A DNA stretch of 64,000 nucleotides, taken from the NCBI GenBank assembly GCA_937899245.1, contig CALDKB010000054.1, forward strand, positions 24,674-88,673, in the 5' to 3' direction. The translations under genes were made by a program, and so were the position numbers. The first letter of the stretch is position 1, and each line of letters starts with the position of its first letter. This DNA is from an uncultured Bacteroidales bacterium. Lineage in GTDB: Bacteria; Bacteroidota; Bacteroidia; Bacteroidales; ML635J-15. The notes beneath the pieces were generated by a model. That model had not been told where the DNA came from. It ran no database searches and saw only the letters and a program-made list of their open reading frames with translations. Shown here one piece after another: positions 5,304-57,466 of the stretch.

Positions 5304-6060
5304 AAGTTTCCCCCCTGAATACTTTTTTTGCTGGGCCTTCAAGCCATATGTTTGTGTATTTGCTGTTTTTCTTTTCAAAGAAAACTTTTAGCATGCCGCC
5401 TTTTGCCTGTAGTGTTATTGGCGATTCGTTTCCTTTTGTCGCATTTATGCAAAGGGCAGATGCTACGGTGCCGGTTCCGCATGCCGAGGTTTCGCCTTCT
5501 ACTCCGCGCTCGTATGTGGCAAGTCTAAAGCCGCCGTTCTGATCAACAAAATTCACATTTGTCCTATTGGGCGCAAAACGCTTGTCGTCGGCAAGTTTAC
5601 GACCTTCGGCTACAATGTCAATCTTGTAGATGTCGTCAACGAATTTAACGAAGTGGGGTACTCCGGTATTTGTCCAAAGTCCATCTTCGAATTTTGATAT
5701 CCCATCTACGTCAATCATCTTGAGCTTCACAGTCGTATCGTCCAGGATTTCTGCTTCGTGGATGCCGTCGTCGGCAATAAAAGTCATTTTGTTGCTGCAA
5801 ATGTGATTGTCGAAAGCATATTTCGCTATGCAGCGTCCACCGTTTCCGCACATGCTTGCCGTATGTCCGTCAGAATTGTAGAATTTCATGGCGAAGTCGT
5901 ATTCATTGCTGCTGTTCACGACGATAAGACCATCTGCTCCTATTCCAAAGCGACGGTCGCACATTTGTTCAATCTGTTCGCTGCTAAGCGCAATGTTACC
6001 GTCGATGTTGTTGATGATAATGAAATCGTTCCCGGCTCCTTGATATTTGTCGAAATTCAT
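5293..6060 (-). CDS. dapF: diaminopimelate epimerase
   Basis: 255 aa. Contains MNFDKYQGAGNDFIIINN and the two catalytic-Cys contexts MCGNGGRC and SACGTG. Confidence 0.9.
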   Translation of the reverse strand: MNFDKYQGAGNDFIIINNIDGNIALSSEQIEQMCDRRFGIGADGLIVVNSSNEYDFAMKFYNSDGHTASMCGNGGRCIAKYAFDNHICSNKMTFIADDGIHEAEILDDTTVKLKMIDVDGISKFEDGLWTNTGVPHFVKFVDDIYKIDIVAEGRKLADDKRFAPNRTNVNFVDQNGGFRLATYERGVEGETSACGTGTVASALCINATKGNESPITLQAKGGMLKVFFEKKNSKYTNIWLEGPAKKVFRGETYGE

Positions 6061-22818: not shown

Positions 22819-22892
22819 CTCCCCAGGTAGGACTTGAACCTACGACCCCCTGATTAACAGTCAGGTGCTCTAACCAACTGAGCTACTGAGGA
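22819..22892 (-). tRNA. tRNA-Asn (anticodon GTT)
   Basis: Manual cloverleaf from the minus strand: TCCTCAGTAGCTCAGTTGGTTAGAGCACCTGACTGTTAATCAGGGGGTCGTAGGTTCAAGTCCTACCTGGGGAG. It has a 7-bp acceptor stem, anticodon loop CTGTTAA and T-loop GGTTCAAGTCC. CCA is not encoded. Confidence 0.9.
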
Positions 22893-35952: not shown

Positions 35953-37038
35953 TTATTTTATTCCGTCGCCGAACTTAAGTTTGGCATCATTAAGCATTTC
36001 GGTGAGGGTTTGTTCGTTTTCGCGTTTGCAAATGAGCAGCGCCTTGTCGGTGTCGACAACGATGAAGTCGTTGAGGTCGCGGATGATGGCAATTTTCTTG
36101 TCGTCCTGTATGTTTACATAGTTGCCGTTTGAGTTGGCGAACAAAGTGTTCTTGTGCAGGTCGGTGTTGGCGTCTTTGTCTCTTTCGGCGATGGTATAGA
36201 GTGAGTTCCAAGTTCCCAGGTCCGACCAGCCGAAATTGGTTTGCATCACATATACGTTCGATTCCTTTTCCATTACGCCAAAGTCGATAGAAATGCTTTT
36301 GGCTCCGGAATAAATCTCGGTTATAGCTTCTTTTTCGCGTGGAGTGTTGAAATGTTTTATTCCTTCGGAGAATAGCGAGTACAATTCCTTTAGATGGCGT
36401 TTAATAGCATCGCGGATTGCAGTCTGCTTCCAAAGGAAAAGTCCTGAGTTCCAGAGGAAGTCGCCGCTTTCGATGAAGAATTTTGCGAGTTCGAGTTGCG
36501 GTTTTTCCGTAAAAGTCTTTACCGGTATGAACTTTTTGCTTTCTGTATTTTCCGACATCTGTATGTATCCGTAGCCGGTGGCGGGACGGTTCGGGGTAAT
36601 TCCGAGTGTAAGCAGAGCATTGCTTTCTGTTACGAACTCAAGTCCCTCGTTGATGTTGTCGAGGAAAAGGTCTTCGTTTAGGATCAGGTGGTCGGCAGGA
36701 GTAACAACTATTTTAGCATCAGGGTTTTTCAGTCCGATTTTGCAGTTCGCATACATTATGCAAGGAGCTGTGTTGCGACGCATAGGTTCGCCGAGAATAT
36801 TCTCGACAGGGACTTTAGGCAACTGTTCGTGTACTATGCCGATGTATTCCTCGTTAGTAACGACATAAATGTTTTCGTCGGGGATTATTTTTGTGAAGCG
36901 GTCGAATGTCTGCTGTATTAATGTTCTGCCAACACCAAGGATGTCAAGGAATTGCTTTGGCATGTTAGAGCGGCTAACAGGCCAGAAACGGCTGCCGATT
37001 CCGCCGGCCATAATAACGCAGTAGTACGATTTGTCCAT
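35953..37038 (-). CDS. mannose-1-phosphate guanylyltransferase-like nucleotidyltransferase
   Basis: Contains YCVIMAGGIGSRFWPVSRSNMPKQFL. The start is taken at MDKSYY (37038). Confidence 0.8.
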   Translation of the reverse strand: MDKSYYCVIMAGGIGSRFWPVSRSNMPKQFLDILGVGRTLIQQTFDRFTKIIPDENIYVVTNEEYIGIVHEQLPKVPVENILGEPMRRNTAPCIMYANCKIGLKNPDAKIVVTPADHLILNEDLFLDNINEGLEFVTESNALLTLGITPNRPATGYGYIQMSENTESKKFIPVKTFTEKPQLELAKFFIESGDFLWNSGLFLWKQTAIRDAIKRHLKELYSLFSEGIKHFNTPREKEAITEIYSGAKSISIDFGVMEKESNVYVMQTNFGWSDLGTWNSLYTIAERDKDANTDLHKNTLFANSNGNYVNIQDDKKIAIIRDLNDFIVVDTDKALLICKRENEQTLTEMLNDAKLKFGDGIK

Positions 37039-37246
37039 TGTGTGCATAGTAATCTCGTTTTATATTTCTATGCAAAGTAACAACAAATATTTGTTATTGG
37101 CGAATTATGGCGGAAGTTTATTCGGAAGATTTTATGTCCGTTAGGTTATTCCGTGCCGCGTCTGCATTTTGTTGACAATAGCACCATTATTCAAGCCAAG
37201 AAGTGGTGTTGGCTTGTGAGATTGCCTGTAATCTTTTGGTATGCAA

Positions 37247-37275
37247 GCTGCAACGGCCGTATTTGTGCAGCCGTT
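37247..37275. other. conserved hairpin ending cassette B
   Basis: gcaacggcc-gtatttgt-gcagccgttg closely resembles 39789-39817, including the flanks caagc...agttt. Confidence 0.5.
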
Positions 37276-37542
37276 GAGTTTAATGTGTCAACGAGAATGT
37301 TGTGTATTTTTTCTCCGCTTTCTAAAATCGTAGAATGCTAGGTGGCTTTATGTTTAATATTATCACATCCTTATCATCTATATTCACCAACTGTTTATAG
37401 GTTTGAATATATTTGCCACGGTCCTCTTCGGCAAGAATAATATCCTGTGTTTTATACACTTCGTATTCGTAAATATAGTTTATGAAAATGCATTGCACAG
37501 CTACAAAAAATCGCTGCAGCTGTAGTCTGCGGCGGAAAAACT

Positions 37543-38991
37543 TTACTTGTCAATCTTGTATATGCAGTTTATCTTTATGCTGGTGTCCAATATCTTTTTT
37601 TCAACAAAGAATACCTTTGGAGAGTTGAACATAAGTTCATATTTCTTCTTGTGCAGATTTTTATTTGATAAACTCAACGCACCAAGATTTTCTTCGACAT
37701 GGACTACCATTATTTTCCCATACTTGCTTCCAAACCTGCAATGGCTGCAAGCCCCATAGTCGGCAAACATTATGTAATCAAAGTCCTTGTAGTCATATTG
37801 AATGCCAGTAGTGTCAAATATTGTTTCCATCGACGAAATAGGGGGATACTTTTCTCGTCTAAGCATTTCTGCATCATTAGGATCGTAATCTTTGATAGTA
37901 GATGCCGTGTAGTAATAATGGTATATGCCATCGTTCCCAAGCGAATCATCGATTGTTTCGTAGCTTGTCCCGTTGAAAAGAATTTGCTGCGACGACATGA
38001 GGTCATTATTGCCGTTTATAACCCCATTAATATTCTTGAACTTTTTCGACTTTACGGAATATACAAAGTCGATATGTCTTCCTGTAAACTCAGCCTCGTC
38101 TATGTGAACCATTATGTACAGCAAGTCGTTGCCTATGAAAGCAATCTTATCTATTTTGGGTTTGATAAAAATCTTATATTTATCCATAATCTGCAGATTA
38201 AGATATGCTTTCCCATAATTTTCGAGCAGAACCTTATCTGGCAATATGGAATCTAAAACTTGTTCAGTTAGTAGGATAGGCGGATAATCAATATTTACTG
38301 TATCAATAATATTAAGTTTACCATTCATTATATACACTTCTCCCTTTAATGGGTTCGACACAGCAATATAATCATCAGACTTGGCTATCATATTAATGCC
38401 ATAATGAGATAACAGTATGCCTTTGCCAATGTCAAACTTAACAGATTTTTCTGCCATACGGGTCTTCATGTTGAATATCCTTACTGTGATATTGTCATAC
38501 GGCTGTCCTTTACGGCTGTTGTTGTATGTGTTGGCGAGTAACACCTTATCGTTTGACTTTCCATCGAGTCTCGAGATATGGTTATATGTGTCCTTGAGTC
38601 TAATTTTTTTCTTAATCTTAAGTTCGTCCTCTTTTTTTTGTGTTCTATATATGAAAAACTGTGACATTATGAGGATTTCGCCATCAGGCATTTCCGCGCC
38701 ATAATACGAATCTTCATAAGCGCTTAACCCTTTTCTTGGCCTTTTGAAATATAGTTTTATGTCCTTTAATGTACTATCAATAACAAGCAAAAGTACTGTA
38801 TCTTCTGTTTTCTCTGAATACTGAAGCCTCATTGGAACAATTGTCTTGCTCGAGCTCTGAAATCTATTGTAATAATCATAATATTCAACACTTTGCCACT
38901 TTTCAAGTTCCAATTTGGGAGAAACTGAGAATGTTTGAGACAATAAATCCAAACAAATAAAAACAAATAAAAATAGTGCAGATGCCTTCAT
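37543..38991 (-). CDS. hypothetical secreted protein with a C-terminal CxxC motif (cassette B large protein)
   Basis: 482 aa with the signal peptide MKASALFLFVFICLDLLSQ. Tyr/Asn/Lys-rich and AT-rich in codon usage. GACSHC lies at nt 37738-37749 in the context FDYIMFADYGACSHCRF, paralleling SDYCIVTLYFQAGCVSCRM in the 564-aa neighbour. I recognise no family with certainty. Confidence 0.55.
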   Translation of the reverse strand: MKASALFLFVFICLDLLSQTFSVSPKLELEKWQSVEYYDYYNRFQSSSKTIVPMRLQYSEKTEDTVLLLVIDSTLKDIKLYFKRPRKGLSAYEDSYYGAEMPDGEILIMSQFFIYRTQKKEDELKIKKKIRLKDTYNHISRLDGKSNDKVLLANTYNNSRKGQPYDNITVRIFNMKTRMAEKSVKFDIGKGILLSHYGINMIAKSDDYIAVSNPLKGEVYIMNGKLNIIDTVNIDYPPILLTEQVLDSILPDKVLLENYGKAYLNLQIMDKYKIFIKPKIDKIAFIGNDLLYIMVHIDEAEFTGRHIDFVYSVKSKKFKNINGVINGNNDLMSSQQILFNGTSYETIDDSLGNDGIYHYYYTASTIKDYDPNDAEMLRREKYPPISSMETIFDTTGIQYDYKDFDYIMFADYGACSHCRFGSKYGKIMVVHVEENLGALSLSNKNLHKKKYELMFNSPKVFFVEKKILDTSIKINCIYKIDK

Positions 38992-39006
38992 TGTTAATTA
39001 TTTTAA

Positions 39007-39030
39007 TTGGAGTGCCATTGGGCACTCCAA
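39007..39030 (-). other. perfect 10-bp GC-rich hairpin between the small and large genes of cassette B
   Basis: ttggagtgcc-attg-ggcactccaa. It starts 8 nt after the small-gene stop and ends 16 nt before the ATG of the large gene. Confidence 0.6.
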
Positions 39031-39037
39031 TAATTAT

Positions 39038-39461
39038 CTACTTTTTAAAGAAAGCTGTTGCATTATACTCAACACCTTTTACTTCTGAACTGGCTTTATG
39101 GTAATCATTAAGTTCTTCATCATATACAAGTCTTGCATTCTTATAATAAATAGTTGCATCATTGTATTGTAGTGTTCCTGTTGTCATGTTATGCGTCTCA
39201 AGGTTCTCTTTAATTACATCTTCAACATAGTTCCATTCAAAACCAACAGTTCCTACTTTGGGGCAAGGTTCATTTCCTGGATCAAGGCACTTTTGTTCGG
39301 TAAGAATTCCGTCCTTATAATGTTGTATTATTTTGTCATAAGTTACACATTTCTGTTTTTTATTCCATTTGCCACCAGACTAAACTACTGTTAAAGGAGG
39401 AATGCCAGCAGATGCTACAACGTACATTAAAAAGCACAATGAATAACAATATTTTCTTCAT
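39038..39461 (-). pseudogene. small secreted protein gene (cassette B) disrupted by a frameshift and an in-frame TAG
   Basis: My own translation:
- The ATG at 39461 gives MKKILLFIVLF, then runs out of frame.
- The next frame reads LMYVVASAGIPPLTVV-TAG(39380-39382)-SGGKWNKKQKCVTYDKIIQHYKDGILTEQKCLDPGNEPCPKVGTVGFEWNY...ATAFFKK, with the stop at 39038-39040.
- Removing one T from the T5 run (39429-39433) restores a clean signal peptide. Confidence 0.5.
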
Positions 39462-39487
39462 TTTATTAAATATATTTAATTATTAAT

Positions 39488-39742
39488 ATGGGATAATTTA
39501 TTTCACAACTGCAACCTATCCCACAGTCGGTTGCAATCATTGCTGTATCCACTACACTAGGGATACATTTTTCCGCATATTTTGCCCTCATATTTTATTA
39601 TAAAATTTATAATTTGTGAGGGCAAACCTATCCGCAATGAAAGGATACTTCATGTAAAATTGACCTATATATATTCATATATAAACTTTTCATATTGTCG
39701 CTTAATAAATTTATGCTACAAGTTTAAGCAAACAAATTGAAA
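39488..39742 (-). repeat. conserved promoter/leader element, copy B
   Basis: By manual alignment it is near-identical to 42064-42314 at an offset of 2573 nt, with about 5 mismatches across the ~240 nt core from 39501. Confidence 0.9.
39706..39713 (-). promoter_or_regulatory. candidate -7 box (TAAATTTA) with TTTG 19 nt upstream, copy B
   Basis: TTTG (39733-39736), 19 nt, then TAAATTTA. One mismatch to TAnnTTTG. An alternative exact TAGGTTTG lies at 39623-39630. Confidence 0.3.
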
Positions 39743-39788
39743 AAAGCAAAATTATTTTTAACAACCGGCAATTTTATCCATATACAAG

Positions 39789-39817
39789 CAACGGCCACTC
39801 AATTGCAGCCGTTGCAG
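39789..39817. other. conserved hairpin ending cassette A
   Basis: gcaacggcc-actcaatt-gcagccgttgc is homologous to 37247-37275. Confidence 0.5.
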
Positions 39818-39921
39818 TTTGTTATTTAGCAAAAACTCCCTAATAATTCGGAACTACAATCACATCGCCATAGTCGTCGAGAACGTACCTTGTGCGTTCG
39901 GTTCTCAAGTACATATTTTTT

Positions 39922-41616
39922 TTAATATATCTCCATCCGCAGTCCACAAGCATCAATCATGGTAGGTATTAAAGCGTCCTCAATATCTTGTGCATTATAC
40001 ACAGAGTCGAGTTCAACCTTGCCGCCCCTTACTATAGTCAGGCGCGGATTTACAAATGGTGAATTCATAGGAAACGAGGACACAATTGCTTCATCATCAA
40101 CGATAACATTATTAAACTTATCCAACCTCAGGTCATGGTCATTTAACTCATTGTCAATACGCGACTTGTAGCCTGTCAGAATAAGATACAAGGGCCTTTG
40201 TGATAAAATCTCCTGGTTTGCAGCTATTAATTCCAACACGGACATCCTACACGACACGCAACCTGCCTGGAAATACAATGTTACTATGCAATAGTCCGAT
40301 TCGTGATCAGGCACATTCCTATCAAAATAATTTATCAACGGATCTTGTCCATCAGTATAATACTGCGAAACTTTTTGTTCCTTATCGTTTCTAAAACCGT
40401 CAATCACGTAGCGCAAACTATCCACAGAAGTATTATGTCCAGACTTTTTTTGCTTTCGATACACATTTATGCGAATGGTATCCTGCGATACCGAACATGA
40501 GATTCGCCTACCATCGACCATTGACATAGAGACAAATGGCTTTACTGTTTCTCCAATATAATTGAAATCCCTATCGGCCATAACGACAGAGCAATACGTT
40601 TTTTCCATGCCGTTTAACCATATTGACGAATAATACATTCCATCAACCGAATCATAAACAATATTTCCATAACACGCAACCATGGCATCGGAAACATCAG
40701 TTTTATATTTTAGCGGAGGGATGGTATCAACCAGCTTTGACTTTAACGTATGTGGAATTAACTTGTCGTTTTTGTAATCCCACTCGAACACATCTGCCGA
40801 ATATGGGAACCTTATCACAGGCATACCATCAGGCGAAATGCAGAAATTGACATGATTGTGATGCCCGCCTTCCAGCACTGGATAATACATTTTATTCTTT
40901 AGGTACGGAAGTTTCTGCCTTGTGAAATAATACTTTTCGGTATTCAAATCATAATAGGCCAAGAACGGCTTCGAATTTTCAATCGAATCACAATTATTAT
41001 AGGAATATCGGCGAGGATAAAGAAAAACTATATTTCCGGCGCGTTTCATTTCACCGTCCAAAAAAGTATATGGCGGCAGCACGTCCGCTTCTGTCAGATC
41101 CAAACCATCGAAGTTTGACTTTTCGCAATTAAAATGATAGTGCTTTTTCACATTTCCCTCATAATCAACGAGCATAAATCTCAACGTGTCGCACGTAGCA
41201 TCATATGGCAGCTCCGTTACCTTGCATTCTCTATTGCTACAATTATGCACTTGCATATACGAATAATATGGTGCGTCATACAGAACCAATATGCTATCCT
41301 TGTTTATATACTCAAAAGTGCATAACGGCCGGTCAGCCAACAAGTTAATCTCATGATATGGTTCTTTCTTTTCAATATCGAAAAAAGTCAGCTTGTTGTT
41401 TTCCACGTATGCTATAAGCGTTTCAACACCATCTATGATGCAATACCGGAACTTGGGAATATATAATATTTTGTTCTGGATTATTGAATCATCAAGCGGA
41501 ATGTTTATGGTTCCTTCTTTATTAAAATCCCAATAGTACTCGTCGTTGCGACAACACGAACACAACATGCTAACTGAGAAAAGAAAAATTGCAGTTTTCA
41601 ACAAAAAATTACTCAT
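39922..41616 (-). CDS. hypothetical lipoprotein with a C-terminal thioredoxin-like CxxC domain (cassette A large protein)
   Basis: 564 aa with a lipobox-like SMLCSCC. The N-terminal ~430 aa is a beta-rich Tyr/Asp/Asn region, possibly propeller-like (inference only). The C-terminal ~130 aa fits a TlpA/thioredoxin pattern: IVTLYFQAGCVSC (nt 40249-40260) ...VIVDDEAIVSSFPMNSPFVNPRLTIVRGGKV. Confidence 0.6.
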   Translation of the reverse strand: MSNFLLKTAIFLFSVSMLCSCCRNDEYYWDFNKEGTINIPLDDSIIQNKILYIPKFRYCIIDGVETLIAYVENNKLTFFDIEKKEPYHEINLLADRPLCTFEYINKDSILVLYDAPYYSYMQVHNCSNRECKVTELPYDATCDTLRFMLVDYEGNVKKHYHFNCEKSNFDGLDLTEADVLPPYTFLDGEMKRAGNIVFLYPRRYSYNNCDSIENSKPFLAYYDLNTEKYYFTRQKLPYLKNKMYYPVLEGGHHNHVNFCISPDGMPVIRFPYSADVFEWDYKNDKLIPHTLKSKLVDTIPPLKYKTDVSDAMVACYGNIVYDSVDGMYYSSIWLNGMEKTYCSVVMADRDFNYIGETVKPFVSMSMVDGRRISCSVSQDTIRINVYRKQKKSGHNTSVDSLRYVIDGFRNDKEQKVSQYYTDGQDPLINYFDRNVPDHESDYCIVTLYFQAGCVSCRMSVLELIAANQEILSQRPLYLILTGYKSRIDNELNDHDLRLDKFNNVIVDDEAIVSSFPMNSPFVNPRLTIVRGGKVELDSVYNAQDIEDALIPTMIDACGLRMEIY

Positions 41617-41637
41617 AAAATAAACTATTAACGTTAC

Positions 41638-42033
41638 TTAATCCATAATGTGAACTTGCTGAACTGCAATTAAATTGCAATTTTTATCATAATACATCTT
41701 TGTGTAACAGTTACGCACTGATAAGTCCGTAAGGTTACACCAACTGCCAACGACAACGCCATCTTCATTTTTAATTTCATGCCATGTGCCCCAAAGCACC
41801 TCGTCTTCACATTTCTTTTTGCTTCTTAATGTAACTTCAAATAAGGTTTCGTTTTCATTGTTAGCGTTTCTGTATAAAGAGCCACAATTTCCATCTTCAT
41901 CACAATAATTAGAATCAACAAGAACCCACATGGGAGCGACAAATTTAGAGATTTTCCCATCTTCCTTTTCGCAAGAAGCGAATATACATACACTTGCCAT
42001 TAATACGGCTATAATTAAAACTAATTTGTTCAT
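41638..42033 (-). CDS. small Cys-rich lipoprotein (cassette A small protein)
   Basis: 131 aa. The signal plus lipobox reads LMASVCIFASC. The mature part carries six Cys. The stop lies 21 nt upstream of the large-gene ATG. Confidence 0.6.
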   Translation of the reverse strand: MNKLVLIIAVLMASVCIFASCEKEDGKISKFVAPMWVLVDSNYCDEDGNCGSLYRNANNENETLFEVTLRSKKKCEDEVLWGTWHEIKNEDGVVVGSWCNLTDLSVRNCYTKMYYDKNCNLIAVQQVHIMD

Positions 42034-42063
42034 TTCTGTAAATTTTATTTGTTGTTATTTTCT

Positions 42064-42314
42064 TGGGATTTTGTTTCACAACTGCAACCTATCCCACAGT
42101 CGGTTGCAATCATTGCTGTATCCACTACACTAGGGATACATTTTTCCGCATATTTTGCCCTCATATTTTATTATAAAATTTATAATTTGTGAGGGCAAAC
42201 CTATCCGCAATGAAAGGATACTTCATGTAAAATTGACCTATATATATTCATATACAAACTGCTCATATCGTCGCTTAATAAATTTATGCTACAAGTTTAA
42301 GCAAACAAATTGGA
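42064..42314 (-). repeat. conserved promoter/leader element, copy A
   Basis: See copy B. It contains four inverted repeats at 42083-42108, 42118-42139, 42154-42199 and 42202-42220. Confidence 0.9.
42279..42286 (-). promoter_or_regulatory. candidate -7 box (TAAATTTA) with TTTG 19 nt upstream, copy A
   Basis: TTTG (42306-42309), 19 nt, then TAAATTTA. An alternative exact TAGGTTTG lies at 42196-42203. Confidence 0.3.
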
Positions 42315-42487
42315 ACAAACAAGAGATTTTTTGCAAAAAATGCCATGCGGAAAATTTATGCGGCGTCATTTTATTGAGAGTCTACCGAGAAAAAAGTTTT
42401 AGTCAAAAAATACCATCAAATAACTGTTGCATTTTTTCGTATTTTAAATTCTTTGACTACCTTTGTCCTGCTTTTTTTCGACAGAAA

Positions 42488-43231
42488 ATGAACTTGTTTG
42501 TTACTATAGGCAAATATTTTTCACTGATGGGTTCTGTATTCTCGAAACCTGTCAGCAGGAAGATATTTTTCCGTCGTCTGGTCGCGGAAATCGAACAGAT
42601 AGGTATCGATTCGGTCGGTATTGTCTGCATTGTGTCGGTGTTCATGGGGGCGGTGCTAACTATCCAGATGGGTATAAATTTCGAGTCGCCGATTATTCCG
42701 AGGTATATTATTGGCCTTAGCACGCGCGACTCTATGATTCTTGAATTTTCCAGTACTATCGTCTGCTTGATTCTTTCTGGCCGTGTTGGCTCCAACATCG
42801 CCTCTGAAATTGGTACAATGCGTATCACCGAACAGATTGATGCCTTGGAAATTATGGGTGTGAACAGCGCCAATTATTTGATACTTCCAAAGATAATTGC
42901 TGCGTTTGTTACTTTCCCATTCCTAGCGTTGCTTAGTATTATCCTTGGTATCGTTGGCGGATGTTTCATCGCATTCACTTCTCCTGATATTGTTACTGTT
43001 GCCGATTATATCTACGGATTACACTATGCGTTTGTGCCGTTCTATGTTACTTATACAGTAATAAAAATTGCTGTTTTCGCAATCCTTATTACCTCGATAT
43101 CTGCCTTTTTCGGCTATTATACCGAAGGCGGTGCACTCGAAGTCGGCAAGAGCAGTACAAAGGCGGTTGTATATAGCATTATCGCCGTATTGTTGTTCAA
43201 CTTAATATTAACTCAGGTTTTGCTCACATGA
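42488..43231 (+). CDS. mlaE: MlaE-family ABC transporter permease
   Basis: 247 aa from MNLFVTIGKYF (atg at 42488). Contains EQIGIDSVGIV, RVGSNIASEIGTMRITEQIDALEIMGVN. The ORF-track start at 42155 reads through the leader repeat and is spurious. Confidence 0.85.
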   Translation: MNLFVTIGKYFSLMGSVFSKPVSRKIFFRRLVAEIEQIGIDSVGIVCIVSVFMGAVLTIQMGINFESPIIPRYIIGLSTRDSMILEFSSTIVCLILSGRVGSNIASEIGTMRITEQIDALEIMGVNSANYLILPKIIAAFVTFPFLALLSIILGIVGGCFIAFTSPDIVTVADYIYGLHYAFVPFYVTYTVIKIAVFAILITSISAFFGYYTEGGALEVGKSSTKAVVYSIIAVLLFNLILTQVLLT

Positions 43232-43989
43232 TAGAAGTTGTTGGTGTAAATAAGACCTTTGGCGACAAGCATGTCCTCAAGGACATAAATGCGACTTTTG
43301 AAGAGGGCAAGGTTAATATGATTATTGGCCGTAGCGGTTCCGGAAAAACTGTGCTGCTGAAAAATATCGTCGGTTTGCTGACTCCAGAAACCGGCGAAAT
43401 TTACTTCAACGGACGTGAATTCGTAAATGTTGACGAAAAAGGTAAGCGCGAAATAAGAAAGGAGATGGGGATGGTCTTCCAAGGCAGTGCTTTGTTTACA
43501 TCTTCTACCGTCGAGGAGAATGTTATGCTTCCTCTCGATTTGTTTACCAAGATGTCGAAGGCGGAAAAGCAGATACGAGTTGATTTTTGTCTTGACCGTG
43601 TAAATATAAAGAATTCAAACAAATCGTATCCTTCAGAGATTAGCGGCGGTATGCAGAAACGCGTGGCTATTGCCCGTGCAATAGCTTTGAATCCTCGCTA
43701 TTTGTTCTGCGATGAACCAAACTCAGGATTGGATCCCCAGACTTCCATCCTTATCGACCAGCTGATAAGGGAAATTACTTTGGAGTATGGCATTACTACT
43801 ATTGTTAATACTCACGATATGAACTCTATAATGGAGATCGGCGATAACATCTGCTTTATCTATCAGGGAAACAAATGGTGGCAAGGCACCAAGGATGATA
43901 TCTTTAAGGCGGATAATCAGGAATTGAATGATTTTGTTTTCGCTTCCAACTTGTACAAAAAGGTAAAATTGGTACACAACAATGAATAG
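43228..43989 (+). CDS. mlaF: MlaF-like ABC transporter ATP-binding protein
   Basis: Walker A GRSGSGKT, signature SGGMQKRVAIARA, Walker B YLFCDEP. A 4-nt overlap with mlaE. Confidence 0.85.
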   Translation: MIEVVGVNKTFGDKHVLKDINATFEEGKVNMIIGRSGSGKTVLLKNIVGLLTPETGEIYFNGREFVNVDEKGKREIRKEMGMVFQGSALFTSSTVEENVMLPLDLFTKMSKAEKQIRVDFCLDRVNIKNSNKSYPSEISGGMQKRVAIARAIALNPRYLFCDEPNSGLDPQTSILIDQLIREITLEYGITTIVNTHDMNSIMEIGDNICFIYQGNKWWQGTKDDIFKADNQELNDFVFASNLYKKVKLVHNNE

Positions 43990-44410
43990 GGTGTTGATAT
44001 TGCTATCGGTTGTTTTGCTTGCTGTTTTTGCCTCATGCAATCCTCCCGACAAACAGGAAAAACTCATAGGCGATGAACGTAGGCTTCCTGTGGAGACAAT
44101 GGAAAACATATTCTATGAAATGCATCTCGCCGATGCTATGGTTTCGCTGCATATGGTTCAGGTTACCGGTCATACCTCGCTGACGCAGTATCAGGTTGAC
44201 AGTCTGTTGTATGAGGGTATATATGAAAAATACGATTGCACCCGTGAAACATTTGAGGAGAGCGTATTGTGGTATTTGCAGAACGACAGCAAGGGATTGG
44301 AAAGCCTGTATGAAAAGGTTGTCGAAAGATTCAATTTGGAAATAGCGGCTTTTGAAATTAATGTCGTAGATTCGTTGGCGACAAAGGAGGAAGAGGAAAA
44401 TACATTATGA
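43982..44410 (+). CDS. DUF4296-like lipoprotein
   Basis: 142 aa with lipobox FASC. The FYEMHLADAM motif is typical of DUF4296. Overlaps both neighbouring genes. Confidence 0.55.
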   Translation: MNRVLILLSVVLLAVFASCNPPDKQEKLIGDERRLPVETMENIFYEMHLADAMVSLHMVQVTGHTSLTQYQVDSLLYEGIYEKYDCTRETFEESVLWYLQNDSKGLESLYEKVVERFNLEIAAFEINVVDSLATKEEEENTL

Positions 44411-55521: not shown

Positions 55522-56592
55522 TCATTCAATAATGCTTTCGTTGTTGTCCGAATGCTTGGCCTTGTTGCTAATTACAAGTTCGTTGTTGGCGTTTGCGTAG
55601 CAATACACGCATAGGTGCCGGCAGGTGTTGTACATGCCGATGTCTTTGCTTATCATGCATCCGCAGGCCTTGCGTTGACCTTTGTCCTTTAGCTTTTGCT
55701 CGCTTAGTGGCGGTAGCGAAAAGTCGCTGGCGAAAAGGGAACTTTTTTCAGGCAGCTTGCCAAAATGCAGATAATACAGTAGATCTTTGTCGTCGTTCCA
55801 CAGGTTTTTTATAAGTTCAGGATCGATGCATCTGTTGTGCTCTATGCCATATTTTGCGAGGTCTATCGGCTCTCCGCATGTTGCAAGCTTGAGTTCCCAG
55901 CCGTCCGAACTCCAGCGTTCTCGGCATTTTGCAAGTCCATCGGCGATTTCGTTCATCTGTGTTTCGGAAAATTCACAGTTCGCAATATTTTCCTTGTCGA
56001 AACTATTCGTCTCTTTTATTAGATTGTTCTGAACTTTTTTGTAGCAGTTGATGTCGATGAAGCTAAATACAAGTTTGTCGGTGCATCCTTTAATCTGGTT
56101 TCCAGTTTTCCATATTTTCTTCAGTAGGTCGCGAGGAGATAGTTCGGGCGTAATTATAAGAGGGTCGAAGCGCCAAATGATTCGTTCCTTACCAATTCTT
56201 TCGGACAATTCCTTGAAAGTTGCGATACGTTCTGACAGCTTCGGCACATTGGGTTCGAATCTTTCTTCGTCGTAATCGTTCATTGTGAATTGAAAGTAGT
56301 AGTGTATTCCCCGTTCGTCAAGTTCGTGTAGGTATGGCATAAGTGGACGCGGGTTTTTTGTCCAGAAAACAACAACTTTGCACTTGTCGAAGCAAACTTT
56401 TGTGGGCTTCTGGTTGAAAGGATTATACCAGATGCAGTATCCTGCTTTAAGCCGGTTGATAAACCATTTTGCGTAAAATGCAGGAATGTCTGTCGAACGT
56501 GAGGCTGAAATTATAACTGGTGATGTGGTGTTGATTTCTAAAGTTTTGTTCATAGTGTTTCCCTTCATTTTGGGGTTAGTCAAGAAGTTCAT
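55522..56592 (-). CDS. DUF1848-family protein (Cys-cluster, radical-SAM-like)
   Basis: Contains ISASRSTDIPAFYAKWFINRLKAGY and the C-terminal CGCMISKDIGMYNTCRHLCVYCYAN. The likely real start is MNKTLEI at 56553. It overlaps or abuts the upstream FGase-like gene. Confidence 0.7.
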   Translation of the reverse strand: MNFLTNPKMKGNTMNKTLEINTTSPVIISASRSTDIPAFYAKWFINRLKAGYCIWYNPFNQKPTKVCFDKCKVVVFWTKNPRPLMPYLHELDERGIHYYFQFTMNDYDEERFEPNVPKLSERIATFKELSERIGKERIIWRFDPLIITPELSPRDLLKKIWKTGNQIKGCTDKLVFSFIDINCYKKVQNNLIKETNSFDKENIANCEFSETQMNEIADGLAKCRERWSSDGWELKLATCGEPIDLAKYGIEHNRCIDPELIKNLWNDDKDLLYYLHFGKLPEKSSLFASDFSLPPLSEQKLKDKGQRKACGCMISKDIGMYNTCRHLCVYCYANANNELVISNKAKHSDNNESIIE

Positions 56593-57277
56593 GGTATATG
56601 TCTTCCATGATTTCAGATATTTTCAATGATTTTCTATCGGTACGCAATTGCATTGTGTTTTCGTTTAAATATGCCTTTTTGTTCACTTCAACCATTAGTG
56701 AATGGTAAGAGAATTCGCATAGTGGTGATATTGAATTGGAATATGGATTGTTGATCCCGACTTTATATCCATGTTTTTCAAATTTGTTGTAGACCATGTC
56801 AACAATGTTGTCGCCAGGGTATGACCAGTCTTTGTTGAACCCTATGCAAATGTCCGCCTCGCTTATATTGCTGGGGAATGAGTGGCAATCGATTATGATG
56901 GAATCGGCAGACAACGTTTTTATAAGTTTGTCTTGGTGTTGTTTCCATATTCCTAGCAATGTTTTTTTTACTGAAGTCGGTACTTCTCGATGAAACCCTG
57001 CAAAGTCGCTGTATATTATTCCTTGTCCGATTTTTTCCATTGGATCGTCCCACAGGCGTTCTGCATCAACAATGAACCGCGAATATGGGAATCGTACGAC
57101 CTTAAGGTTTGAAACAGAGTTGAATGCAAACACAAAGTCGGTGTACCAGTCGGTTAGCTTGATTACGGATTCGTTGATAAATTTTGGGTTGTTTGGCCAG
57201 AAACTAAGATTTTTGTCGGCAATTCCTTCTATTGAGGAATGAGGTACGTGAAGTACAATATATTTAATGTTGTTCAT
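56576..57277 (-). CDS. N-formylglutamate amidohydrolase (FGase, PF05013)-like protein
   Basis: 233 aa. Contains YIVLHVPHSS..IP, FVDAERL and IIIDCHSF, consistent with the metal-dependent FGase fold. Confidence 0.6.
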   Translation of the reverse strand: MNNIKYIVLHVPHSSIEGIADKNLSFWPNNPKFINESVIKLTDWYTDFVFAFNSVSNLKVVRFPYSRFIVDAERLWDDPMEKIGQGIIYSDFAGFHREVPTSVKKTLLGIWKQHQDKLIKTLSADSIIIDCHSFPSNISEADICIGFNKDWSYPGDNIVDMVYNKFEKHGYKVGINNPYSNSISPLCEFSYHSLMVEVNKKAYLNENTMQLRTDRKSLKISEIMEDIYHELLD

Positions 57278-57466
57278 ATCGTTATGTTTTTTGTTTCAAT
57301 AAACACTCATCGTAAAAACCACCGTGGCATAACAACTCGGTTGGTGCACAATTGTGCTCTTGATGGATGTTGCAAAGATACGAAAGATTTCGTGTTATTT
57401 TTTGATTTGGCAGAATTTTTCGAAACAGGTTGCTTGTGTGGATATTTCATTGTACCTTTACAAAAA

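Follow-up and report, generated by a model that had tools for sequence, protein, structure and literature searches.

The individuality of gut and rumen Bacteroidales strains owes much to variable surface-lipoprotein loci, mostly of no known function or control. To our knowledge, few cis-acting RNA or leader-peptide controls have been recognized in the phylum Bacteroidetes, and we know of no leader described for Bacteroidales that is comparable to the one considered here. BtuG, a further point of reference, is a beta-propeller, and BtuG-type lipoproteins are riboswitch-controlled. Among the described systems closest to the proteins of this locus are DUF4221 (PF13970), a family of uncharacterised Bacteroidetes lipoproteins, the TlpA/ResA/AhpC-TSA oxidoreductases and the NHLRC2-type proteins, in which a thioredoxin-like domain and a six-bladed NHL propeller are found in one chain (PMC6107167). 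Gut Bacteroides have surface-exposed lipoproteins that capture vitamin B12 (PMC6143338), the signal for surface export in Bacteroidetes being K-(D/E)2 or Q-A-(D/E)2 placed just after the lipidated Cys (PMC5080379), while the Bacteroidetes Q-rule prescribes a Gln at position +1 of the signal peptidase I cleavage site (PMC5837995).

The island at 37048-42487 of the window (i.e., the whole 64,000-nt stretch of DNA analysed) is an accessory, strain-variable locus in which two neighbouring operons encode exported proteins, each operon being headed by one copy of a ~240-nt leader; all the island features described below lie on the minus strand. Its computed G+C content is 35.6% vs 43.2% in the remainder of the window and, since the other 5.44-kb segments outside the island (mean 43.1%, sd 1.08) never fall under 40.4%, the island, ~7 sd below them, is the lowest-G+C stretch of the window. 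Thus, the AT-richness originally noticed by eye is genuine, and of that estimate (25-35% vs 40-50%) the direction holds whereas the size of the contrast was overstated. Homologous modules, found in mutually unrelated genomic surroundings, have 31-34% G+C at eight other loci whose flanks have 39-49%; these properties, together with the variability between sister strains, support the accessory and compositionally deviant character attributed to the locus. Neither the ORF list nor a repeat search yielded an integrase or transposase ORF or a flanking repeat, in accordance with the predicted lack of mobility genes, and the sole tRNA detected is at 22819-22892. In the window's own species, for which nine places were returned, the gene of a 482-aa protein (w482) adjoins manC in all eight contigs reaching upstream of manC, and no empty manC-mlaE site was found among these places. 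The host is described as a gut or rumen Bacteroidales. All the features initially listed were recovered: the leader repeat, the four genes, both relics and both hairpins.

The leader is seen as a direct repeat (39497-39759 and 42070-42332) of 263 nt with 95% identity, whose spacing is precisely the 2573 nt initially proposed; in the alignment ~190 nt are 100% identical, and a 46-nt piece has exactly two occurrences in the window, 0 being expected. Copy 1 (42034-42312), identified by the repeat, the alignment and a covariance-model match of 117 bits, begins with Bacteroidetes-type promoter boxes (TTTG at 42312-42301 and TAAATTTA at 42286-42279) and continues with an upstream ORF (42266-42201), three hairpins (P1, 42201-42154; P2, 42139-42118; P3, 42109-82) and an invariant AUCCC box (42070-42064). 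Copy 2 (39462-39739; repeat, alignment, folding z-scores of -3.4 and -4.1, covariance-model match of 126 bits) has the same anatomy, with promoter boxes at 39739-39728 and 39713-39706, upstream ORF at 39693-39628, P1 at 39628-39581, P2 at 39566-39545, P3 at 39536-39509 and AUCCC box at 39495-39489. The putative promoter has the form TTTG-N19-TAAATTTA, the boxes of the window agreeing with the consensus at seven of eight positions, and it is from these consensus boxes that we infer the promoter, the 5' end and the location of the leader within the transcript. No match to Rfam 15 was found in 36900-42600, either at the gathering score or at E<=1.

Leader homologues are known from three lineages, represented by a first group (L004, L086, L130-133, L143-145 and L149-151), by a divergent group (L146-148) and by the window; each is located directly 5' of a gene for a small exported protein, and different gene sets stand behind it across the three lineages. 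The folding z-scores range from -3.4 to -4.5 in three lineages, the L146 leader folding no better than its shuffles (z -0.5). In an alignment of the three lineages fitted to the model, 90.5% of the cells pair, compared with 31-53% with slid partners, the covariation score of 0.140 (0.088 after shuffling) is reached by none of 500 shuffles, and five pairs are altered on both sides, so that the covariation of the three hairpins is modest. P1 is nearly invariant and P3 has one unpaired position in 7 of the 10 sequences. The upstream ORF, whose lengths are all multiples of three, stops at the foot of P1 in four of five lineages and ends in CAT GGC GGA TAG or in CAC GGA GGC TAA, so that all changes in these last four codons are synonymous; in L143-145 the frame is not kept. 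The leader may constitute an undescribed regulatory element. On the other hand, it is missing before the homologous gene pairs of L001, L007 and L008-10, which have a short standard promoter instead, so that the proteins can do without it.

Operon 1 is, as read from its genes and their homologues, a conserved pair coding for a small lipoprotein and a marginal DUF4221 member. Its first gene (41638-42033), the small secreted-protein gene of the original prediction, encodes a 131-aa product (w131), which from its sequence is a lipoprotein of a new family; the lipobox Cys21 opens the stretch C21-E-K-E-D, which conforms to the K-(D/E)2-type export rule (PMC5080379) and predicts surface exposure. 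Homologues with 27-63% identity are present in L001 (two), L006, L007, L086 and L130, and the small Bacteroidales family to which they belong has 21 members, none of which is named; searches of Pfam, NCBIfam and PADLOC gave no match. The w131-family gene is always 5' of a gene for a propeller protein of 541-565 aa. The earlier view of this product as a Cys-rich cargo is not supported, because besides the lipobox Cys only one other Cys is invariant in the family and the C44/C50 pair is replaced in 3 of 7 members.

The partner gene (39922-41616) encodes w564, a 564-aa lipoprotein identified by its ORF, by Pfam and by the AF2 model as a distant member of DUF4221; residues 196-357 pass the Pfam cut-off marginally (25.2 vs 23.4 bits, E 1.5e-5) and DUF4221 is matched by 4 of 14 homologues at a threshold of E 0.01. 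S20 and C21 are nearly invariant among the homologues, the Cys being followed in w564 by a non-canonical export signal (C-R-N-D-E) and in the homologues by C-E-R/Q-K-D-D. In the AF2 model (pLDDT 74.7) the strands of residues 27-392 (40441-41538) can be read as six four-stranded blades and, indeed, Foldseek returned only generic propellers, including the six-bladed strictosidine synthase, the top matches having probability 1.0; since the query was the whole model, the propeller matches swamp the C-terminal domain. As to the latter, residues 442-556 (39949-40293) are predicted to form a domain of thioredoxin topology, with the order strand-CxxC/helix-strand-helix-strand-strand-strand-helix given by DSSP for the model; the CxxC (C453-x-x-C456, 40260-40249), which like the ORF is as originally described, would be at the start of helix 1, and the conserved Pro of NPRLTIV would precede the fourth strand, a position occupied by a cis-Pro in known thioredoxin-fold members. 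P100 and R101 are invariant in the alignment of this type of tail domain, whose profile (A6) aligns with PDB entry 8t4c_A, a "thioredoxin oxidoreductase", with E 0.19 and with CxxC and Pro in register; AhpC-TSA is matched weakly (E 0.024) by 2 of 7 tail-domain members, and a single-sequence search gave no match. The CxxC is present in all nine long propeller homologues listed and is lost in P0014, while half of the propeller homologues have no thioredoxin-type tail, so that such a tail is not universal. The preservation of CxxC and Pro motif across two propeller subfamilies only 29% identical argues for a conserved activity.

Operon 2 is decaying in this strain, where the small gene is broken, the orphan CxxC protein is kept and the third, propeller gene is fragmentary. 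Comparison with sister-strain alleles identifies 39038-39461 as a pseudogene of a 141-aa secreted protein, which vindicates the suspicion that this copy was broken; two nucleotides are deleted between 39440 and 39439, and the AAG codon at 39382-39380 has become a TAG stop, the allele being intact (141 aa) in L134, L135, L137 and L139 and having the TAG only in L002, L136, L138 and L140. Its product matches no family. The following gene (37543-38991) encodes w482, a 482-aa secreted protein defined by its ORF and family alignment as belonging to an orphan family, with six close homologues and 38 representatives among 1.84 billion proteins and with no match in Pfam. The predicted signal peptidase I site, between LLS and QTF, exposes Gln19 in agreement with the Q-rule (PMC5837995), and Q19 is nearly invariant in 27 members of the family. 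The C-terminal CxxC, rightly placed by the original prediction, is a CSHC motif (C415-x-x-C418, 37749-37738) and is invariant in 21 C-terminal modules of the family. A thioredoxin fold is not supported for w482: the AF2 model is unusable (pLDDT 42), hhalign finds no link between the CxxC module and the w564 tail (probability 0.5%), the search against PDB profiles returned only spurious C2H2 zinc-finger matches and no solved thioredoxin, and the next strand follows the CxxC after only ~8 residues. What survives of the proposed thioredoxin-fold partner is thus the topology predicted for the w564 tail.

Downstream of w482, a relic of the third gene (37281-37498; tblastn E 1e-17 and 4e-5) corresponds to residues 36-102 of the 559-aa propeller protein of L086, of subfamily II, with 65% identity and one frameshift, and is truncated at the hairpin, so that the short ORF noted at 37498-37322 is a fragment of a propeller gene. 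The other short relic ORF (39840-39914), TRYVLDDYGDVIVV, resembles, as judged by eye only, the C-terminal tail SKYALDEDGEVIVV of the subfamily-II propeller proteins, and tblastn gave nothing significant for it. The hairpin CAACGGC-N12-GCCGTTG, which had been reported for both units, has exactly two occurrences in the window (37251-37276 and 39789-39814; 0 expected), where copy 1 (39788-39815) is a terminator-like element of 11 pairs followed by TTGTATAT and copy 2 extends over 37247-37276. A further terminator-like element, AAAGTTTTTCCGCCGCAG...ATTTTTTG, is located 3' of w482 (37504-37544), and the same motif is found 3' of the large genes in L004, L086 and L131.

If the two units have the same gene order, with leader and hairpin present twice and with two large proteins having a CxxC near the C-terminus in a locally similar context (DY..F..G.C..C), could they have arisen by tandem duplication of a 2.55-kb cassette followed by divergence, giving a disulfide-centred module whose Cys-rich cargo would be served by a thioredoxin-fold protein? 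This origin is highly improbable. Leader and hairpin are all that is repeated between the units, the two small proteins are unrelated to each other, and for the two large ones neither BLASTP (best E 0.5) nor hhalign (probability 2% and 0.6%) detects any homology; divergence after duplication of a whole cassette cannot give such a contrast between the proteins and leaders that are 98% identical. Furthermore, each of the two junction types is older than the split between the lineages, the small protein does not conserve its cysteines and half of the propeller homologues have no tail. The identity between the leaders is in fact mosaic, since the cores of the two copies are 98% identical and their junctions 65%, the junction of copy 1 being closest to that of L146 (78%) though the corresponding cores are only 62% identical. 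The near-identity of the leader core within a genome whose gene sets differ therefore qualifies it as a homology block for exchanging or homogenising cassettes, a role shown in part, through this mosaic identity. In the RUG14538 lineage, at the site bordered by GAF on one side and by the 201-aa and radical-SAM genes on the other, four different contents stand behind the leader among sister strains; sister-strain assemblies break within the leader. That the leader acts only at the DNA level, as a repressor operator and/or recombination handle with incidental hairpins, is a possibility we consider unlikely but worth keeping in mind: the core is homogenised within the genome, P1 is invariant instead of covarying, and two GGATAGG boxes lie 101-105 bp apart, i.e., ~ten helical turns, both being altered at the same position in L146 (GGAGGC and GGAGTG). 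However, pairing is maintained despite sequence changes in the P2 and P3 stems and in apical P1, the first GGATAGG box is equally explained by the Gly-stop codons of the upstream ORF, and the locus has no linked regulator gene.

By analogy with BtuG, the leader could be a riboswitch-type sensor and the lipoprotein pair a device for the surface capture of a small nutrient. The long structured 5' UTR, the conserved 12-nt loop of P3 (GAYTRTGGGATA) and the invariant AUCCC box, which can pair with either the P3 loop or the 5' GGAUA block (95% and 87% of cells, respectively), are compatible with this analogy, as is the surface-export motif (PMC5080379) of the small lipoprotein. Nonetheless we hold it to be very unlikely, because the alternative pairings have no informative covariation, the P3 loop changes from GGG to GGA in L143-145, the genes are dispensable and decaying with no linked transporter, and homologous pairs elsewhere have no leader. 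Hardly more probable is that the cassettes carry polymorphic antagonism/immunity genes, or code for variable surface antigens on which phage or host imposes diversifying selection, with no redox role. Their content is hypervariable between strains, small partner genes have been lost repeatedly, G+C is low everywhere, and L001, L007, L008 and L146 have toxin-antitoxin, Abi and other defence-type neighbours; but PADLOC gave no match, no toxin, MACPF, peptidase or nuclease domain was found, and the CxxC and Pro motif are kept across subfamilies only 29% identical.

The reading that we regard as best overall, and to which we give somewhat better than an even chance, is that of leader-controlled, recombining cassettes encoding envelope proteins. 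A promoter of the TTTG/TAnnTTTG type would start a long 5' untranslated region containing, in this order, the upstream ORF with its stop at the foot of P1, two more hairpins and the AUCCC box, followed by the first gene with its AU-rich start region; the leader would be cis-regulatory, bringing both operons under one control, and its core would serve in addition as the homology block for swapping or homogenising cassettes. The products w131 and w564, the latter with its predicted six-bladed propeller of the DUF4221 kind and predicted TlpA-like thioredoxin domain, could cooperate in the outer membrane or periplasm, where the CxxC domain, if the model is correct, might perform thiol-disulfide exchange on w131 or on a bound substrate. 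A more specific and rather improbable version makes of the leader a new class of Bacteroidales cis-regulatory element, in which translation of an arrest or coupling upstream ORF (MN...LHGG-stop) ending at the P1 foot, or a ligand or protein bound at the P3 loop/AUCCC box, would switch surface cassettes, with the leader doubling as swap handle and an (ACAT)n tract in the upstream ORF providing a phase-variable on/off frame.

What this locus contributes is a previously unnamed two-gene module, consisting of a small lipoprotein and a DUF4221-type propeller fused to a predicted thioredoxin-like domain, an orphan family of CxxC proteins (w482) and a conserved leader, absent from Rfam, which heads different gene sets in different strains. 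Should the leader be a real regulator, it would be among the few cis-acting RNA or leader-peptide controls of the phylum and a case in which regulation and cassette exchange share one sequence; should it not be, the locus would still illustrate clearly how genes turn over and decay at a hot spot.

Like leader-peptide attenuators and riboswitch leaders, the island leader would form a long 5' UTR in which a short ORF stops at the base of a stable hairpin, loops are conserved and alternative pairings are possible; it differs from them in that none of its hairpins is followed by a terminator U-tract, Rfam contains no match to it, and the residues of its upstream-ORF peptide point to no sensed amino acid. 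The lipoprotein signal, the predicted propeller body and the Bacteroidales host are common to w564 and DUF4221, from which w564 differs by a marginal match restricted to residues 196-357, by ~170 additional C-terminal residues predicted to form the thioredoxin-topology domain and by the constant pairing of its gene with that of a small lipoprotein; no DUF4221-thioredoxin fusion was found in the sources searched, Pfam gives no second domain for w564 and the literature searched contained no mention of DUF4221. In the model, the w564 tail has in common with the TlpA/ResA/AhpC-TSA oxidoreductases the CxxC at the start of helix 1, the Pro before strand 4, the order of the elements and the extracytoplasmic location, whereas its sequence matches are not significant (E 0.19; E 0.024 in 2 of 7 members) and the domain would follow a propeller as its C-terminal extension instead of being membrane-anchored alone. 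Like NHLRC2, w564 would join a thioredoxin-like domain and a six-bladed beta-propeller in one polypeptide. In NHLRC2, however, which is eukaryotic and cytosolic and has NHL repeats, the thioredoxin-like domain is N-terminal, so that the order of the domains is reversed in w564; no sequence relation has been seen here. Finally, unlike variable-cassette loci with conserved flanks, this locus yielded no recombinase, inverted repeats or attC-like sites, exchange being deduced from mosaic identity, and it shares with them a leader on the 5' side and a terminator motif on the 3' side of interchangeable gene sets.

The island between positions 37048 and 42487 contains 35.6% G+C against 43.2% in the rest of the window, of which it is the lowest-G+C stretch (5.44-kb windows outside it have a mean of 43.1%, sd 1.08, and a minimum of 40.4%), so that the AT-rich island of the original prediction is confirmed. 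It is flanked by a mannose-1-phosphate guanylyltransferase-type gene (manC) on one side and by the genes of MlaE and an ABC ATPase on the other, and all the leaders, genes, relics and hairpins previously listed are present. On the minus strand, operon 1 begins with leader copy 1, followed by the genes of w131 (131 aa, 41638–42033) and w564 (564 aa, 39922–41616), a relic of 25 codons and the first copy of a hairpin; operon 2 follows with leader copy 2, a broken small gene (39038–39461), the gene of w482 (482 aa, 37543–38991), a second relic (37281–37498), which is a propeller-gene remnant, and the second hairpin copy. Neither recombinase nor tRNA nor flanking repeat accompanies the island, which, as predicted, is devoid of mobility genes. 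Immediately beyond the MlaE/ABC-ATPase pair lies a DUF4296 lipoprotein gene (43982–44410, plus strand; Pfam E 2e-16), and elsewhere the window holds a SAM-I/IV riboswitch aptamer (57277–57371, minus strand; Rfam RF01725, 53.2 bits vs a gathering score of 41.1) abutting the start of the minus-strand ORF 56576–57277.

The premise that the island consists of two tandem copies of one cassette did not withstand comparison of the two units, whose repeated parts are the leader and the hairpin only. The leader repeat (263 nt, 95% identical, spacing 2573 nt) includes ~190 identical nt, all five mismatches lying in the promoter-proximal 60 nt, and the leader piece and the hairpin each occur exactly twice in 64 kb, with 0 occurrences expected. 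Homology between w564 and w482 was detected neither by BLASTP (best E 0.5) nor by profile–profile comparison (probability 2%, and 0.6% with a 27-sequence profile of the w482 family), and the small proteins of the two operons are likewise unrelated. Furthermore, the leader core is 98% identical between the copies, whereas identity drops to only 65% over the 80 nt that lead from the AUCCC box to within the signal peptide; this junction is nearest, in copy 1, to the one in L146, a distant lineage (78%), though their cores are 62% identical, and, in copy 2, to those of L086, L143 and L149 (74–75%). Two old junction types thus lie behind a core homogenized within the genome, a pattern that points to recombination or gene conversion rather than to duplication followed by divergence.

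The small protein of operon 1, w131, is a predicted lipoprotein with an invariant Cys21 followed by E-K-E-D; since this fits K-(D/E)2, a lipoprotein export signal of Bacteroidetes (PMC5080379), surface exposure of w131 is plausible. The 21 members of its family are without exception unnamed Bacteroidales proteins, and in every readable locus a propeller gene of 541–565 aa comes directly after. Only two cysteines are invariant in this family, so that the small protein is not the conserved Cys-rich cargo that had been envisaged. In the locus L007 (8850–9300), many short degenerate repeats, CGTTAATCCGTTAACCCG and CCTTACTGGCGTTA among them, crowd the intergenic region upstream of the small-lipoprotein gene.

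For the large protein, w564, a search of 5.8 billion clustered proteins yielded only 14 relatives at E ≤ 0.001; w564 marginally passes Pfam DUF4221 (25.2 vs a cut-off of 23.4 bits), which 4 of the 14 also match. In its AlphaFold model (pLDDT 74.7, pTM 0.70) the strand pattern of residues 27–392 is read as six four-stranded blades, followed by a long helix and by a domain (residues 442–556) having the order strand, CxxC plus helix, strand, helix, strand, strand, strand, helix. Foldseek searches of two libraries with the whole model yielded propellers only, generic ones with the six-bladed strictosidine synthase among the best, and no thioredoxin for the tail. In the C-terminal domain the first helix begins with C453-x-x-C456, and the fourth strand comes after an invariant Pro-Arg (NPRLTIV); the domain profile aligned with PDB 8t4c_A ("thioredoxin oxidoreductase") over 101 positions with both motifs in register at an E of only 0.19, and two of seven domain members touched AhpC-TSA at E 0.024. 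It is taken as a domain of predicted thioredoxin topology, probably TlpA-like. The CxxC and the Pro motif are kept in both propeller subfamilies (~29% identical); the tail is absent in approximately half of the relatives (393–408 aa) and the cysteines are lost in one long member. Thus, of the disulfide-centered module originally proposed, the thioredoxin-fold partner survives as a predicted topology of w564 and the Cys-rich cargo does not. PADLOC and NCBIfam searches gave no matches, and literature searches found no paper on DUF4221 or NVEALA. The association of a thioredoxin-like domain with a propeller occurs in NHLRC2-type proteins (PMC6107167).

Operon 2 is decaying in the window's strain. 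An identical manC was found at nine places from other samples, and the eight contigs extending upstream of it all have w482 alongside, these short-read assemblies of sister strains breaking inside the leader; an empty manC–mlaE junction was not found among them. In L134, L135, L137 and L139 the small gene is intact, with 141 codons and a secreted protein as its product, and in L002, L136, L138 and L140 it carries an AAG>TAG change; the window has the same TAG (39382–39380) plus a 2-nt deletion at 39440/39439. The truncation of the small-lipoprotein gene to a few dozen codons before a 403-aa tail-less propeller gene in two other loci (L008:5300–5424 and L010:690–811) is a second, independent decay of the small partner.

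The w482 family is an orphan (six close relatives; 38 representatives among 1.84 billion proteins), with no Pfam domain in w482 and no Pfam, PDB or profile link obtained from a 27-sequence family alignment. A near-invariant Gln at its predicted signal-peptidase site is consistent with the Q-rule of Bacteroidetes signal-peptidase substrates (PMC5837995). Its C-terminal module (~90 residues) contains an invariant CxxC; profile comparison and PDB search of this module gave no link to thioredoxins, and the AlphaFold model of w482 was set aside as unusable; matches of this module to C2H2 zinc fingers were rejected as summed repeat artefacts. Downstream, the relic 37281–37498, which is cut short by the hairpin, corresponds to residues 36–102 of a propeller protein of subfamily II and contains one frameshift; it shares 65% identity with the 559-aa L086 protein (E 1e-17). 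The 25-codon ORF after w564 resembles, by eye only, the C-terminal tail of subfamily-II propellers. One or more additional propeller genes have therefore been lost from the locus.

The leader, searched for by BLAST, pattern scans and a covariance model (R1) built in this analysis, is found in three lineages: the window, with two copies only and none added by the covariance-model search; a rumen-type lineage including the MAG RUG14538 (L004, L086, L130–133, L143–145 and L149–151, with L006 starting inside the leader); and the divergent L146–148. The same model found no leader before the homologous gene pairs of L001, L007 and L008–10, which use a short standard promoter. Rfam gave no match even at E ≤ 1, and exact leader patterns of 128 nt in genome_contigs and 38 nt in metagenome_contigs gave 0 matches, both collections being without the window's own lineage. 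A loose P1 pattern returned 119 matches, mostly irrelevant terminator-like hairpins, L086 being the sole true one.

From 5′ to 3′ the leader consists of a Bacteroidetes-type promoter (TTTG-N19-TAAATTTA, the second box being a perfect TATATTTG in L146), a short upstream ORF, the hairpins P1, P2 and P3, the AUCCC box, an AU-rich stretch and the start codon. P1 is long, with an invariant GCCC/GGGC core and an apical stem that is wholly different between lineages yet paired; the P2 strands are GUAUCC/GGAUAC in the window, those of the L lineages being GUAUUUUC/GAAAAUGC (or ...AUAC); P3 has a variable stem and a conserved 12-nt loop (GAYTRTGGGATA); and the AUCCC box is invariant in variable surroundings. 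The core folds better than shuffles in three lineages (z −4.1 to −4.5), L146 (z −0.5) being the exception. In the model-fitted alignment 90.5% of cells pair, compared with 31–53% when partners are slid, five pairs change on both sides, and the covariation score is reached by 0 of 500 shuffles; with three lineages, this covariation is suggestive of an RNA structure, not proof. Possible pairing partners of the AUCCC box are the P3 loop (95% of cells) and a 5′ GGAUA block (87%), neither pairing displaying informative covariation; a pseudoknot with the P3 loop was rejected on this ground and because GGG>GGA in L143–145 breaks it, and its rival, a closing helix P0 (87%), was no better supported. 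The heptamer GGATAGG occurs twice per leader, 101–105 nt apart, at the upstream-ORF stop and in the P3 loop (in the window at 39509–39536 and 39628–39640, with a copy 2573 nt upstream); in L146 one and the same position is altered in both copies (GGAGGC and GGAGTG).

In four of five lineages the upstream ORF starts at a conserved ATGAAY, or at an upstream ATG in the same frame, and its stop codon lies right at the foot of P1; the peptides are M(S/K)SLYMNIYRSILHEVSFHCG (window), MNTYIYTYNSLHGG (L004 and L086), MSNLYINTHTYRSNPIVNSLHGG (L149) and MNTNIINSWNLLHLNGILHGG (L146). Between L and L146 there are four nucleotide changes in its last four codons, all of them synonymous, stop-to-stop included. 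The ORF lengths are 51, 45, 57 and 66 nt. In L143–145 the start is thrown out of frame by an additional ACAT within a tetranucleotide tract; this (ACAT)n/(TACA)n tract varies in length between strains (L143:5790–5815, L151:1–28, L004:1500–1520) and could act as a phase-variation switch. A 41-codon Cys-rich leader ORF (MRAKYAEKCIPS...CGIGCSCE) was rejected as a peptide precursor, its frame stopping after 16 codons in L004.

Homologous modules have 31–34% G+C in eight loci, their flanks 39–49%, and occur in unrelated contexts, often beside toxin–antitoxin or Abi-type genes. The neighbors in L001, L007, L008 and L146 (AbiEi/AbiEii, HEPN/nucleotidyltransferase, HepT/MNT, AAA_15+RloB and PriCT_2/DUF3987 genes) make these surroundings typical variable or defence-island neighborhoods. 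One site of the RUG14538 lineage is bounded on one side by a GAF-domain gene and on the other by a 201–212-aa gene (88–98% identical across L004, L086, L131 and L132) with a radical-SAM gene next, the flanks of L143 being matched by gene order and Pfam domains only. Four different contents follow the leader there: 164 + 180 + 313 aa in L131 and L132; 164 + 180 + 331 aa (the last being homologous to the 313-aa gene) and a w482 homologue in L004; 139 + 559 aa + a w482 homologue in L086; and 143 + 552 aa in L143. All large genes at this site end with one terminator motif, of which the window has a degenerate copy behind w482. This motif (AAAGTTTTTCCGCCGCAG-loop-CTGCGGCGTTTTTTTGC), located after successive cassette large genes (L086:4122–4175 and 5737–5790; L004:5427–5470; L131:3465–3590; window 37504–37544), may constitute a conserved 3′ flank for cassette exchange.

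The island therefore holds two operons with a common conserved leader and one conserved gene pair, in cassettes that are mosaic, strain-variable and still decaying. The leader would be transcribed as a 5′ UTR and control the two operons; this control might depend on the upstream ORF being translated as far as the foot of P1, or else on the P3 loop and AUCCC box. Its conserved core would offer a route for cassette recombination; the lipoprotein pair would act in the periplasm or the outer membrane, with the CxxC domain exchanging disulfides with its partner or with a bound substrate. We lean slightly toward this overall picture of leader-headed, recombining operons for envelope lipoproteins, regulated and exchanged through the leader, and hold its regulatory-RNA or leader-peptide part, taken alone, with less confidence.

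As to known systems, membership of w564 in DUF4221 is marginal, and its C-terminal domain matches TlpA/ResA-type oxidoreductases in topology and motifs but not significantly in sequence. NHLRC2-type proteins resemble w564 only in combining a thioredoxin-like and a propeller domain, with the order reversed, and leader-peptide or riboswitch leaders have anatomy alone in common with the present leader. Set against these, the island stands as a variable lipoprotein locus of Bacteroidales in which the domain fusion and the leader are undescribed and two protein families lack names.
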